Shown piece by piece: positions 1,532 to 20,987 of a stretch of 23,396 bases of DNA; position 1 is the first letter of the stretch, and each line of letters begins with the position of its first letter. The notes beneath the pieces are model-generated. The model saw only the letters and a list, made by a program, of their open reading frames with translations, was not told the DNA's origin and searched no databases. The stretch lies in IMG/VR virus record IMGVR_UViG_641522625_000005; one strand, given 5' to 3'. The position numbers and the translations under genes were made by a program. Origin of the DNA: a virus. Its lineage: Duplodnaviria; Heunggongvirae; Uroviricota; Caudoviricetes.

Positions 1532-1741
1532 TTAATTTGAATACAATGCAATTCTCGAGGACTGAAGTTTCTCGCAATTAAAATTTATCAGTTTTACTTT
1601 CTGCTCTCTGGAAACGCCTGCTTCTTTTTTACCTGAGAGCATTTTTTCGCATTCTGATTTCGTTAGTTTAGATTTTGAATATCTTGTCCAGTTAGTAGGA
1701 GTGCCACCTTCCTTTTCAATAGTGGCGGTAATTTTATACAT
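1532..1741 (-). CDS. rcbA: YdaC/RcbA small protein, 69 aa
   Basis: ATG at 1741..1739 (MYKITATIEKEGG...), 69 aa; overlaps the ralR 3' end by 8 nt. Confidence 0.7.
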   Translation of the reverse strand: MYKITATIEKEGGTPTNWTRYSKSKLTKSECEKMLSGKKEAGVSREQKVKLINFNCEKLQSSRIALYSN

Positions 1742-6671: not shown

Positions 6672-7160
6672 ATGTTGGATGTATTTACTCCATTGTTGAA
6701 ACTTTTTGCTAACGAGCCACTCGAAAGACTTATGTATACGATTATCATTTTTGGTCTCACTCTCTGGCTGATACCGAAAGAGTTTACTGTCGCATTCAAT
6801 GCTTATACTGAAATACCTTGGCTCTTTCAGATTATCGTTTTTGCCTTTTCTTTCGTGGTCGCCATTTCCTTCTCAAGATTGCGAGCACATATTCAAAAGC
6901 ATTATTCATTACTACCAGAGCAACGAGTATTGCTTCGTTTATCTGAGAAAGAAATCGCTGTATTTAAAGATTTCCTTAAAACAGGAAATCTTATTATCAC
7001 TTCTCCTTGCCGTAACCCGGTTATGAAAAAATTAGAACGGAAGGGCATCATTCAACATCAGAGTGATAGCGCAAACTGTTCTTATTATCTCGTCACCGAA
7101 AAATACTCCCATTTTATGAAGTTATTCTGGAACAGCAGGAGTAGACGTTTTAATCGTTAG
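6672..7160 (+). CDS. sieB: SieB superinfection exclusion protein, 162 aa, membrane
   Basis: ATG at 6672 (MLDVFTPLLKLFANEPLERLMYTIIIFGLTLWLIPKEF...), hydrophobic N-terminal segments; stop TAG 7158..7160. The ORF-track 5' extension to 6549 is unlikely. Confidence 0.8.
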   Translation: MLDVFTPLLKLFANEPLERLMYTIIIFGLTLWLIPKEFTVAFNAYTEIPWLFQIIVFAFSFVVAISFSRLRAHIQKHYSLLPEQRVLLRLSEKEIAVFKDFLKTGNLIITSPCRNPVMKKLERKGIIQHQSDSANCSYYLVTEKYSHFMKLFWNSRSRRFNR

Positions 7161-7312
7161 CTTACTGTGTGCTTCTCCAACCATCGGCGCGCACCAGTTT
7201 CGGTTTTAAATGTTTTGCTTTTGGTATACGTCATGGCAGTGAACGTTCCATCCTGGTTGGGGAACACGCCGCACACCAGGGATTCGTTGTTGCCGAGGTC
7301 GATTTTTTGCAT
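7157..7312 (-). CDS. ydaF: YdaF small protein, 51 aa
   Basis: Hand-translated: MQKIDLGNNESLVCGVFPNQDGTFTAMTYTKSKTFKTETGARRWLEKHTVS; ATG at 7312..7310; convergent with and overlapping the sieB stop. Confidence 0.65.
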   Translation of the reverse strand: MQKIDLGNNESLVCGVFPNQDGTFTAMTYTKSKTFKTETGARRWLEKHTVS

Positions 7313-7322
7313 TTTGCGAATC

Positions 7323-7457
7323 TCACATCTTGTTGCTACGTATAGCGACTTCTGCCTGCCAGAGATCCCAGTCGTTGCTGCGTAAAGCCTGCACAGCCTG
7401 GTTGTAAGTGATACCGCAACAATCCATCAAATACTGAACTACTTCGTAATGCACCAT
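7323..7457 (-). CDS. ydaG: YdaG small protein, 44 aa
   Basis: Hand-translated: MVHYEVVQYLMDCCGITYNQAVQALRSNDWDLWQAEVAIRSNKM; ATG at 7457..7455 preceded by AAGGGGAGAGA RBS. Confidence 0.65.
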   Translation of the reverse strand: MVHYEVVQYLMDCCGITYNQAVQALRSNDWDLWQAEVAIRSNKM

Positions 7458-7626
7458 CTTATCTCTCCCCTTAACGCCGGGTGGCGGAACTAACTGCTGC
7501 ACTGCAAAATTTGAATCCCGCCGTCATGTTCATACGCCTCGGGCTGGCTACTTAACCCCTTACCACTGCCTGGTAACTCGAAGTATTGCCCGGCGTTCTG
7601 TGGGGCGGGGTGGGTGGTATGCTGGA

Positions 7627-7670
7627 ACTATAGGTAATGCCTAATTGATTGTCAATAGGCTATGCCTAAT
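7627..7670 (-). promoter_or_regulatory. Leftward PL-like promoter with overlapping operator (OL-like)
   Basis: On the minus strand: -35 TTGACA (complement of 7650..7655), 17-nt spacer, -10 TATAGT (complement of 7627..7632). Embedded in a 26-bp element (7645..7670) that is the inverted near-copy of the element at 8295..8320; repeated TGCCTAAT motifs. Confidence 0.6.
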
Positions 7671-7765
7671 GTTTTGAGCGTAACCTAATAGGTGATGGCG
7701 ACAGCAGAAAGTGATGGGGGGGTTAAATAACGGAATCCAGGAGTTTTCCGTCAGACCATATAAGT

Positions 7766-8242
7766 TTAAGTTCCAGTTTTTGTGATGTTCTGGCTTTTCC
7801 GTTCAGATTCAAGAGCTTTCAGATACTTACCCACTTTCATTTCCATCGCTGCTATGTAGGCGCGAACATCGTGGTCAACCCAATCTGGTTCTGTAGCATT
7901 TCCAGATAACAGGAAAGCTACAATCGCTCTTATTTCATCAGAGGCTGCTTGATAAAGGTTGTTTATATCTAAAAGTTCACTTTTTGTATCTGAATTGGTG
8001 GGGGTTGGTATGGGGTATTCGTTAAGCCCCCAATGCTCTGGACCAACAACATCAGAAAAGAAACGCCATAATTCTGGAAGTTTATCTTTACTTATAGAGC
8101 CTTTCTTAATCCAGTCATAAATTGATGGTGGTTGGACTTTAAAGTGGCGTGCGACCTCCGCCTTTGATTTGACGGATCCCGATGCGATTTTTTTGTTAAT
8201 GGCCTGCTCTATCGCTCGGCCTAAGTCTTTACCACTAAGCAT
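7766..8242 (-). CDS. racR: RacR prophage repressor (CI-like), 158 aa
   Basis: 158-aa ORF, ATG at 8242..8240 with AGGAG RBS; N-terminal HTH-like segment (SKAEVARHFKVQPPSIYDWIKKG); divergent from Cro-like ydaS. Confidence 0.9.
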   Translation of the reverse strand: MLSGKDLGRAIEQAINKKIASGSVKSKAEVARHFKVQPPSIYDWIKKGSISKDKLPELWRFFSDVVGPEHWGLNEYPIPTPTNSDTKSELLDINNLYQAASDEIRAIVAFLLSGNATEPDWVDHDVRAYIAAMEMKVGKYLKALESERKSQNITKTGT

Positions 8243-8294
8243 TGCTTAATATTCTCCTATGCGCATTACATTAGGCAATCCCTACCCTTACTGC

Positions 8295-8339
8295 ATTAGG
8301 CACAGCCTATTGACAATTGCGTTAGGCGTCGCCTAATAT
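8295..8339 (+). promoter_or_regulatory. Rightward PR-like promoter with overlapping operator (OR-like)
   Basis: -35 TTGACA 8310..8315, -10 TAATAT 8334..8339 (18-nt spacer) about 27 nt upstream of the ydaS ATG; ATTAGGCA/TTAGGCG repeats; 26-bp element ATTAGGCACAGCCTATTGACAATTGC. Confidence 0.65.
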
Positions 8340-8365
8340 TTCTGTGTGTTTTTGGAGTTCATTCG

Positions 8366-8662
8366 ATGAAAAAAGAGAACTATTCATTCAAGCAAGCTTG
8401 TGCTGTTGTCGGTGGGCAATCAGCAATGGCTAGGCTTTTAGGTGTATCACCTCCAAGCGTAAATCAATGGATCAAAGGGGTACGTCAATTGCCTGCCGAG
8501 AGATGTCCAGCAATTGAACGTGCAACAAGAGGTGAGGTTCTGTGCGAAGAACTTCGTCCTGATATTGACTGGTCATATTTACGACGTTCGGCATGTTGTT
8601 CGCAGAATATGTCAGTGAAGCAACTAAATGACAGTAACAAATCCTCATTTGATCATACCTGA
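8366..8662 (+). CDS. ydaS: YdaS Cro-like HTH protein, 98 aa
   Basis: ATG at 8366 with GGAG RBS; HTH segment (QSAMARLLGVSPPSVNQWIKG); first gene of the rightward operon. Confidence 0.85.
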   Translation: MKKENYSFKQACAVVGGQSAMARLLGVSPPSVNQWIKGVRQLPAERCPAIERATRGEVLCEELRPDIDWSYLRRSACCSQNMSVKQLNDSNKSSFDHT

Positions 8663-8684
8663 AACATCAAGAGGCAAATGATTC

Positions 8685-9107
8685 ATGAAAATCAAGCATG
8701 AGCACATCGAATCAGTGTTGTTTGCCCTAGCAGCCGAAAAAGGGCAGGCATGGGTAGCCAATGCAATTACTGAAGAATATCTGCGCCAGGGGGGCGGCGA
8801 ATTGCCCCTGGTTCCAGGCAAGGACTGGAACAATCAGCAGAATATCTATCACCGTTGGTTGAAAGGTGAAACGAAAACGCAAAGAGAAAAAATTCAGAAG
8901 CTGATCCCAGCAATTCTGGCAATCCTTCCGCGCGAGCTGCGTCACCGACTCTGCATCTTCGATACCCTGGAACGCCGTGCATTACTGGCGGCGCAGGAAG
9001 CGTTAAGTACGGCAATTGATGCGCATGATGATGCAGTCCAAGCCGTTTACCGGAAAGCGCATTTCAGCGGCGGCGGTTCTTCCGACGATTCTGTCATTGT
9101 TCATTAA
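8685..9107 (+). CDS. ydaT: YdaT, 140 aa (CII-position protein; reported toxic when derepressed)
   Basis: ATG at 8685 with AAGAGG RBS; 140 aa; second gene after the Cro-like gene. Confidence 0.85.
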   Translation: MKIKHEHIESVLFALAAEKGQAWVANAITEEYLRQGGGELPLVPGKDWNNQQNIYHRWLKGETKTQREKIQKLIPAILAILPRELRHRLCIFDTLERRALLAAQEALSTAIDAHDDAVQAVYRKAHFSGGGSSDDSVIVH

Positions 9108-20412: not shown

Positions 20413-20987
20413 TGGCATTCAGAATGAGTGAACAACCACGGACCATAAAAATTTATAATCTGCTGGCCGGAACTAATGAATTTATTGGTGAAGGTGATGC
20501 ATATATTCCGCCTCATACAGGTCTGCCAGCAAACAGTACCGATATTGCACCGCCAGATATTCCGGCTGGCTTCGTGGCTGTTTTCAACAGTGATGAGTCA
20601 TCGTGGCATCTCGTTGAAGATCATCGGGGTAAAACGGTTTATGACGTGGCTTCCGGCAACGCGTTATTTATTTCTGAACTCGGTCCGTTACCGGAAAATG
20701 TTACCTGGTTATCGCCGGAAGGGGAGTTTCAGAAGTGGAACGGCACAGCCTGGGTGAAGGATACGGAAGCAGAAAAACTGTTCCGGATCCGGGAGGCGGA
20801 AGAAACAAAAAACAACCTGATGCAGGTAGCCAGTGAGCATATTGCGCCGCTTCAGGATGCTGCAGATCTGGAAATTGCAACGGAGGAAGAAATCTCGTTG
20901 CTGGAAGCATGGAAAAAGTATCGGGTATTGCTGAACCGTGTTGATACGTCAACTGCACAGGATATTGAATGGCCAGCACTGCCGTAG
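20412..20987 (+). CDS. tfaR: Tail fibre assembly protein, 191 aa
   Basis: ATG at 20412 overlapping the stfR stop; 191 aa, the typical Tfa position. Confidence 0.9.

Follow-up and report, generated by a model that had tools for sequence, protein, structure and literature searches.

The racR region of the Rac prophage

Control of the Escherichia coli prophage Rac by its repressor RacR has been described on one side of the racR gene, where the three studies concerned (PMC9638921, PMC5700373 and PMC11879457) deal with nothing beyond the racR-ydaS intergenic region and racR's 5' end. In the prophage CP-933P, the cloned promoter PL933P showed repression of about 100-fold with PaaR2 and with YdaS (PMC8630535). 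Here, both flanks of racR are analysed in a window of 23,396 nucleotides, the whole stretch of viral DNA (Caudoviricetes) recorded as IMG/VR IMGVR_UViG_641522625_000005. Positions 7300-8700 show 100% identity to E. coli K-12 MG1655 and to laboratory strains related to it, and the first 16 kb are collinear with the Rac prophage annotation; on both grounds, the names racR, ydaS and ydaG/ydaF of K-12 Rac, given in a preliminary description of this DNA, are correct. The operator-promoter cassette to the right of racR recurs in mirror image to its left, and the left copy is very probably a RacR-repressed leftward operator and promoter (OL/PL).

The right side (OR/PR) is well characterized. Three GCCTAA/TTAGGC repeats were found in the 123-bp racR-ydaS intergenic region, RacR gave three complexes in an electrophoretic mobility shift assay, and chromatin immunoprecipitation (ChIP) with quantitative PCR showed enrichment (PMC5700373). 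A single ydaS start was mapped by primer extension, mutation of TAATAT abolished the promoter, and DNase I footprinting with RacR revealed that the ydaST promoter region is protected first, at the lowest RacR concentration; the same study reported an ATTAGGC logo, the dyad (T/A)TAGGC-n3-GCCTA(T/A), operators named O1-O3 and a single TTAGGC site within the racR coding sequence (PMC9638921). Four operators and the promoter TTGACA/18/TAATAT are described, with PydaST mapped and mutated (PMC11879457). RacR control of the rightward ydaS promoter, which the preliminary description had proposed, was thus already shown experimentally (PMC9638921, PMC5700373).

Mirror-image cassettes on both sides of racR

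The preliminary description reported a 26-bp element right of racR that recurs inverted on the left with 22 of 26 identities, and the count is exact: the reverse complement of 7645..7670 (ATTAGGCATAGCCTATTGACAATCAA) and 8295..8320 (ATTAGGCACAGCCTATTGACAATTGC) differ at 4 positions. A repeat search extended the mirror match to 35 nt at 83%, with arms at 7648-7682 and 8283-8317. The repeat is far beyond chance. In the two intergenic regions flanking racR, the best inverted 26-mer has 23 identities and the best inverted 35-mer has 29, against at most 19 and 24, respectively, in 300 dinucleotide-preserving shuffles.

The functional unit of the repeat is a dyad operator of 15-17 bp, and the earlier 26-bp element is one operator (OR2 or OL2) together with its fused -35 hexamer. 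The motif ATTAGGCA occurs exactly four times in the 23.4-kb window, at 7638 and 7663 on the minus strand and at 8270 and 8295 on the plus strand (0.88 expected), with two copies in each of the two racR-flanking elements and none elsewhere. Five matches to the full dyad TTAGGCNNNGCCTAA (TTAGGC-N3-GCCTAA) with at most two mismatches were found at 7630, 7655, 8271, 8296 and 8322, all inside the two clusters, against 0.62 expected and 0 of 100 shuffles; with at most three mismatches there are eight, all within 7630-7688 or 8210-8336. The motif search suggested in the preliminary description therefore found the motif solely at the two elements, and its candidate RacR half-sites stood as to their presence on both sides, while their form had to be amended to ATTAGGC in a dyad with a 3-nt spacer. 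Outside the clusters the window holds no operator-like dyad with at most three mismatches, against about 8 expected from shuffles; since 3 of 180 composition-matched permuted dyads also give none, this depletion is marginal, and it hints weakly at best that spurious operators are avoided elsewhere in the prophage.

A consensus scan of 7300-8500 returned exactly the two outward TTGACA promoters with well-spaced -10 hexamers that had been described at first, and the predicted PL is the best promoter match of that region. The features of the two cassettes and the gene between them are as follows.

7655..7650 and 7632..7627, minus strand: predicted PL, -35 TTGACA and -10 TATAGT with a 17-nt spacer, 11/12 consensus
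7629..7645, minus strand: OL1, ATTAGGCATTACCTATA, 2 mismatches in 12 specified positions, between -35 and -10 and overlapping the -10
7654..7670, minus strand: OL2, ATTAGGCATAGCCTATT, 1 mismatch, its last two bases being the first two of the -35 hexamer
7673..7689, minus strand: OL3 candidate, ATTAGGTTACGCTCAAA, 3 mismatches, 19 bp from OL2
7766..8242, minus strand: racR, repressor gene, 158 amino acids
8210..8224, plus strand: weak site inside racR, TATCGCTCGGCCTAA, 3 mismatches, with one good half-site GCCTAA
8234..8250, plus strand: operator over the racR start codon, ACTAAGCATTGCTTAAT, the 'O3' of PMC9638921
8270..8286, plus strand: OR3, ATTAGGCAATCCCTACC, 2 mismatches, corresponding to the ancestral O2 TTAGGCAATTCCTAT of other genera
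8295..8311, plus strand: OR2, ATTAGGCACAGCCTATT, 1 mismatch, fused to the PydaST -35
8321..8337, plus strand: OR1, GTTAGGCGTCGCCTAAT, a perfect dyad overlapping the PydaST -10
8310-8315 and 8334-8339, plus strand: PR, that is PydaST, -35 TTGACA and -10 TAATAT with an 18-nt spacer, 10/12 consensus

Both cassettes are built alike. The last half-site of the outer operator (OR2 or OL2) reads GCCTAT and its final TT starts the -35 TTGACA, and the inner operator (OR1 or OL1) fills the promoter spacer and overlaps the -10. In each cassette the inner and outer operators lie 25-26 bp apart, and the OL and OR clusters lie 641-692 bp apart. The ydaST promoter region protected first in the published footprint contains OR1. 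OR amounts to 4-5 sites, and the site equivalent to 8234..8250 is found at position 0 in nearly all relatives. On the left, transcription from the predicted PL would start at about 7620 (A), 146 bp beyond the racR stop codon; OL1 is conserved in the E. coli racR-type variants, among which OL3 keeps solely its ATTAGGT half-site, and OL3 has 2 mismatches in E. ruysiae (L004) and in phage vB_EcoS-683R6. Judged from the letters, a second operator cluster beyond racR thus overlaps what would be the outward promoter of the early-left (recombination/kil/int) operon. Terminator-like matches of a scan at 8321-8337 and at 7656-7668 (+) were rejected as operator palindromes followed by T-rich sequence.

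The right cluster of Escherichia Rac shows one extra unit, with sites at -87, -61, -36 and 0 compared with -60, -35 and 0 elsewhere. The K-12 OR3 (GCAATCCCTAC) matches the ancestral O2 (GCAATTCCTAT) but lacks the adjoining TTGACA, and the inserted unit of OR2 and -35 resembles OL2 at 22 of 26 positions. This suggests that the extra E. coli OR unit arose by duplication or conversion from OL.

Leftward transcription upon lowering of racR

Published expression data bear directly on the left cassette. When racR transcription was lowered by C protein, ydaC, kilR and ralA rose more than 70-fold, and ydaF, ydaG, ydaE and racC about 40-fold (PMC6765115); taking C protein and CRISPR interference (CRISPRi) together, the leftward genes rose 40-100-fold upon lowering of racR (PMC6765115; bioRxiv 10.64898/2026.09.06.749655). 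That leftward transcripts rise as racR transcription falls argues against read-through from the racR promoter and for a separate, RacR-repressed promoter downstream.

Read-through was the basis of another account, in which kil silencing was ascribed to a Rho-dependent terminator in racR acting on a 'PRM' transcript (PMC4150792). According to such an explanation, the leftward genes would be controlled by racR-promoter read-through normally stopped at 'trac', or indirectly via YdaS/YdaT, and the left repeat would be incidental. Some read-through is possible, since only a modest hairpin follows the racR stop codon, but leftward genes going up while racR goes down, with C protein as with CRISPRi, is the opposite of what read-through predicts, and this explanation of the leftward genes is very unlikely. 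The PMC4150792 study does not consider a PL, and the Rho and PL models are compatible, as Rho could also end leaky PL transcripts in the C-rich leader. The Rho-loading site was placed in an 'untranslated region +1 to +210' before racR (PMC4150792), which is hard to reconcile with an intergenic region of only 123 bp and a main racR transcript reported as leaderless (PMC9638921). The hairpin itself (UGACGGAA...UUCCGUUA, then UUUAA; 7727-7753, minus strand) lies just past the stop codon and could act between racR and OL as a weak intrinsic terminator; its fold is not significant (z = -0.9).

The predicted PL leader and the edge of the immunity module

The position of the left cassette coincides with a boundary among prophages. 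In a sequence search with 7458-7765, the matches in thousands of E. coli genomes were confined to the left half of that stretch. Rac was aligned with two diverged racR-type prophages and with three prophages that have other repressors, namely L069 (Rac left arm with a different helix-turn-helix (HTH) repressor), L070 (LexA-family repressor) and L071 (paaR2-paaA2-parE2, the CP-933P type). The sequence downstream of the boundary is the predicted PL leader.

7458..7620, minus strand: predicted PL leader, the 5' untranslated region of ydaG, with the C-rich 5' end ACCCACCCCGCCCCAC

The shared leader, CATACCAACCCACCCCGCCCCACAGAACGCCGGGCAATAC..., starts at the predicted +1 in all aligned prophages, with 85-98% identity to Rac, and directly upstream of that point the -35/-10 and the palindromes are peculiar to each immunity type. 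Because the PL of CP-933P has been demonstrated and the boundary is shared, the Rac cassette occupies the position of a verified PL at the edge of an exchangeable immunity module.

The CP-933P precedent also raises the question of which protein reads the left sites. They could be mainly operators of YdaS, an HTH protein of the P22_Cro/YdaS family, rather than of RacR, given that PaaR2 and YdaS both repress PL933P (PMC8630535). The left dyads, however, have the same sequence as the OR footprinted with RacR (PMC9638921) and co-occur across loci with the RacR-type DNA-binding domain, so that sites mainly for YdaS are extremely unlikely. Sharing of sites by YdaS and RacR is the expected lambdoid situation, a complement to the assignment of the left sites to RacR rather than a true rival of it.

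The leader, of about 165 nt, is common to E. coli prophages of four immunity modules, and its first ~100 nt are nearly invariant (L066-L071). In an alignment-based fold of 7 leaders the C-rich tract pairs with GGGG(T/A)T further downstream, and this pairing shows one double change, from C-G to U-A; only 2 pairs of the fold have compensatory changes, so that the variation is too small for a judgement, and the single-sequence fold is not significant (z = -1.46). Rfam gave nothing in this region, with the whole window searched at the gathering threshold and 7400-7700 at E<=1, and in a search of the Rac leader for boxA/nut no match better than 3 mismatches was found. The first leftward gene encodes YdaG, a 44-residue UBA-like peptide, and not an N-type antiterminator. 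For the leader, a rut site, a processing site or an antitermination element are possibilities.

Conservation of the cassette in relatives

A scan of one genome per species yielded 62 loci encoding a RacR-type N-terminal domain, in genera including Escherichia, Mixta, Morganella, Proteus, Klebsiella, Erwinia, Achromobacter, Burkholderia, Comamonas, Lysobacter, Cupriavidus and Pseudomonas. In most of these loci the stretch upstream of the repressor gene carries dyads at about -60, -35 and 0, and a downstream pair, 24-26 bp apart, was found in 40 of the 62, located 68-3142 bp past the repressor stop codon. In all 40 the downstream pair reads TTAGGCnnnGCCTAT-TGACA-(7-8 nt)-TTAGGCnnnGCCTAAT-AT on the repressor's strand and fires away from the repressor gene, so the -35/-10 placement seen in Rac is common to them; the -35 among the 35 non-identical cassettes is TTGAC (25), TTTAC (9) or TTGTC (1). 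The sequenced phage vB_EcoS-683R6 (RacR 98.7%) likewise carries both clusters, as does the complete Klebsiella phage KpF5 genome (RacR 56%).

The gap between repressor gene and cassette varies from about 70 bp to 3.1 kb and is filled with unrelated cargo (L012-L062, L065), including ankyrin repeats, Schlafen/AlbA_2 with HATPase_c_4, an HTH-ParE toxin-antitoxin pair, DUF5131, a thymidylate kinase, a P63C-domain protein and an M78/IrrE peptidase; the cargo gene of KpF5 is annotated 'protein of unknown function DUF450'. This gap is a moron slot like lambda rexAB, and K-12 Rac is without cargo in it. The cassette is kept across 1-3 kb of such cargo, some of it on the opposite strand, which speaks once more against leftward transcription by read-through from the repressor gene.

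A perfect boxA (CGCTCTTTA, often CGCTCTTTAAC) occurs on the cassette strand about 50-70 nt past the -10 in 10 Pseudomonas/Achromobacter loci (L014, L041, L043, L046-L049, L052-L054), where it is the sole boxA per 8-kb locus. This placement fits the leader expected of an early operon. Often a short hairpin precedes the boxA, its stem differing from locus to locus, as in GCAGTC...GACTGC and CGAGG...CTCG, and the two together look like a nutL site. One locus, L003 (JARKOR010000130.1), is a 5.2-kb contig of a 'Candidatus Nanosynbacter' metagenome-assembled genome whose RacR is 100% identical to that of K-12 and whose operator layout is alike; it is almost certainly E. coli contamination or mis-binning.

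Weighing the left cassette

Cassette conservation, the module boundary and the expression data strongly support the left copy as a second RacR-controlled promoter. From the identical dyads, the co-occurrence of the dyads with the DNA-binding domain and the published RNA-seq we infer that RacR binds at OL1/OL2 and thereby occludes PL.

Several points weigh against this reading. OL1, with 2 mismatches, is a weaker match than OR1, and OL3 is only a half-site. Leftward derepression could partly be indirect, via YdaS/YdaT or excision. By the criteria used, 22 of the 62 related loci are without the downstream pair; among these are loci whose operators have diverged, loci on short contigs and loci with a pair further out than the 4-kb flank. 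RacR is without the S24 domain of classical CI repressors, and cooperativity and looping are pure analogy. The literature searched holds no binding assay, reporter fusion or mapped start for the left site of Rac.

Rac being defective, OL1 deviating from consensus and the literature searched offering no start-site or reporter data, the left element might still bind RacR but have no promoter activity in K-12, as a decayed relic or an auxiliary site for looping only. Decay is at odds with predicted PL hexamers that match consensus at 11/12, the best in the region, and with a cassette that is identical in the sequenced phage L064 and kept in E. coli variants whose flanks diverge to ~80% identity; the strong leftward induction on RacR depletion (PMC6765115; bioRxiv 10.64898/2026.09.06.749655) likewise points to an active promoter. 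A relic or auxiliary site is thus quite improbable.

Proposed mechanism of two-sided repression

In this reading the Rac immunity region would have two operator-promoter cassettes, OR/PR in the right element and OL/PL in the left. The dyad (A)TTAGGC-N3-GCCTAA(T) is most likely bound by a RacR dimer, as footprinted on the right and by extension on the left. As OR2 and OL2 run into the -35 and OR1 and OL1 overlap the -10, RacR on an operator pair would occlude both hexamers. On the right, such occlusion would account for the silencing of ydaS-ydaT that has been demonstrated, and on the left it would silence ydaG, ydaF, kilR, ydaE, racC, recET, ralR, xis and int. Upon a drop in RacR both promoters would fire, and YdaS, being Cro-like, probably uses the same sites later, to judge from CP-933P. 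By analogy, cooperative pairing of adjacent dimers and an OL-OR loop of about 650-690 bp are plausible; the spacings of 25-26 bp between sites and 641-692 bp between clusters are compatible with both.

A broader proposal is offered tentatively, as one that is less likely than not to hold in full: that PL at 7627-7655, and not racR read-through, would be the physiological source of the kilR, recET, ralR and xis/int transcripts, including lethal kilR when Rho/NusG is compromised and perhaps recET activation by sbcA mutations; that leaky PL transcripts would be stopped in the C-rich leader; that the cassette and the RacR-type domain would form an ancient portable unit across Gamma- and Betaproteobacteria, combined with S24 or, in enterobacteria, with a non-cleavable helical domain; and that the extra E. 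coli OR unit would have been copied from OL.

The RacR protein

RacR has no Pfam or PHROG family above threshold. It gave a sub-threshold match to Pfam HTH_17 (18.7 bits against a cut-off of 27), and among its homologues the N-terminal residues 1-73 are nearly invariant. The AlphaFold model, of moderate confidence (mean predicted local distance difference test score 79), has two domains, with five helices at the N terminus and three at the C terminus, joined by a disordered linker; a Foldseek search of the model against the PDB returned nothing significant, the best matches all being XRE/Cro/cI N-terminal-domain folds at E >= 0.3. No Peptidase_S24 was found in RacR, where residues 87-153, a C-terminal domain of about 70 residues, form three helices. 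Peptidase_S24 is present in 9 of 10 longer relatives that share the N-terminal domain and the operators of RacR (L011, L012, L014, L020, L024, L031, L041, L047 and L056; also P0103, P0105, P0114 and P0117). The enterobacterial RacR looks like a domain-swapped, presumably non-SOS-cleavable version of a CI-type repressor.

Genes of the two arms and other features of the window

The first genes of the two arms are as follows.

7323-7457, minus strand: ydaG, 44 amino acids, UBA-like, first leftward gene
7157-7312, minus strand: ydaF, DUF1391, spanning 7157..7457 together with ydaG
8366..8662, plus strand: ydaS, Cro-like, first rightward gene, matching Pfam YdaS_toxin and P22_Cro

Left of ydaF the minus strand carries kilR, ydaE, racC, recE, recT, ralR, rcbA, xisR and intR, with sieB on the plus strand between ydaF and kilR. 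Rightward, ydaS is followed on the plus strand by ydaT, ydaU and ydaV. The Rfam matches of the window at gathering level are RalA, the antitoxin small RNA of RalR (1557-1735, plus strand), and IS009 (20755-20953, plus strand); both are known Rac features unrelated to the racR-flanking operators.

Known and new

The right half of this arrangement is known, and the left half is apparently an unreported instance of a lambdoid OL/PL. PMC9638921 makes zero mentions of ydaG, ydaF or kilR, according to PMC11014345 the RacR regulon, with the 'ydaFG operon' in it, has yet to be characterised, and PMC6765115 merely speculates that RacR may act on distant genes. No description of a Rac left OL/PL and no RacR ChIP-exo or ChIP-seq data were found in the literature searched, and an earlier account in older kil/sbcA papers is possible.

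Rac has been studied for the essentiality of RacR, the toxicity of YdaS/YdaT, division arrest by KilR, RecET recombineering and silencing by Rho/NusG. With a strong RacR-controlled PL 146 bp past racR, the joint induction of ydaG through intR would be explained directly and in one step. Such a PL would also be a defined element to mutate for separating the effects of the two arms, and it has a bearing on models in which kilR is transcribed from the racR promoter. The finding is useful for annotation of the RacR regulon and for kilR/recET expression; it is expected of any lambdoid phage and in that sense not surprising.

Comparison with lambda and CP-933P

The preliminary description likened the locus to the lambda immunity region, with one repressor controlling both early operons. 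The arrangement stood, but the analogy is not new for the right side, a lambda cI/cro/cII analogy having been made by Casjens and by Jobling (PMC5917428). Rac has a repressor gene and a divergent cro-like gene with several intergenic operators over PR and the repressor promoter. As in lambda, two operator clusters enclose the repressor gene, each outward early promoter is overlapped by a pair of neighbouring dyads with centres about 24-26 bp apart, and the promoter of the repressor itself has a third or further site. The leftward operon likewise includes kil, recombination genes and xis/int, and the repressor mRNA is leaderless (published for racR, PMC9638921); in Rac relatives there is also room for cargo between the repressor gene and PL, in a slot like that of rexAB. 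Unlike lambda, the Rac operator is a 15-17 bp dyad with a 3-nt spacer, compared with 17 bp in lambda, OR has 4-5 sites and OL two and a half-site, whereas lambda has OL1-3/PL and OR1-3/PR/PRM, bound by CI and Cro, and the OL-OR distance is about 650-690 bp instead of ~2.4 kb. RacR furthermore is without the S24 autocleavage domain, N gene and boxA were not found in the Rac leader, and YdaS reportedly does not repress racR (PMC9638921).

CP-933P of E. coli O157:H7, in which PR933P, PRM933P, PL933P and OL1-3 are described and PL is repressed by the repressor and YdaS (PMC8630535), differs in its repressor and operators, which are unrelated to those of Rac (AACTGTT-type repeats), and in the paaA2-parE2 toxin-antitoxin pair between the repressor gene and PL. 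It shares with Rac the same neighbourhood, the YdaS/YdaT partners, a PL that mirrors PR, and the equal position of PL against a leader that is ~89% identical to Rac's. The Rac arrangement is the standard lambdoid one of OL/PL and OR/PR.

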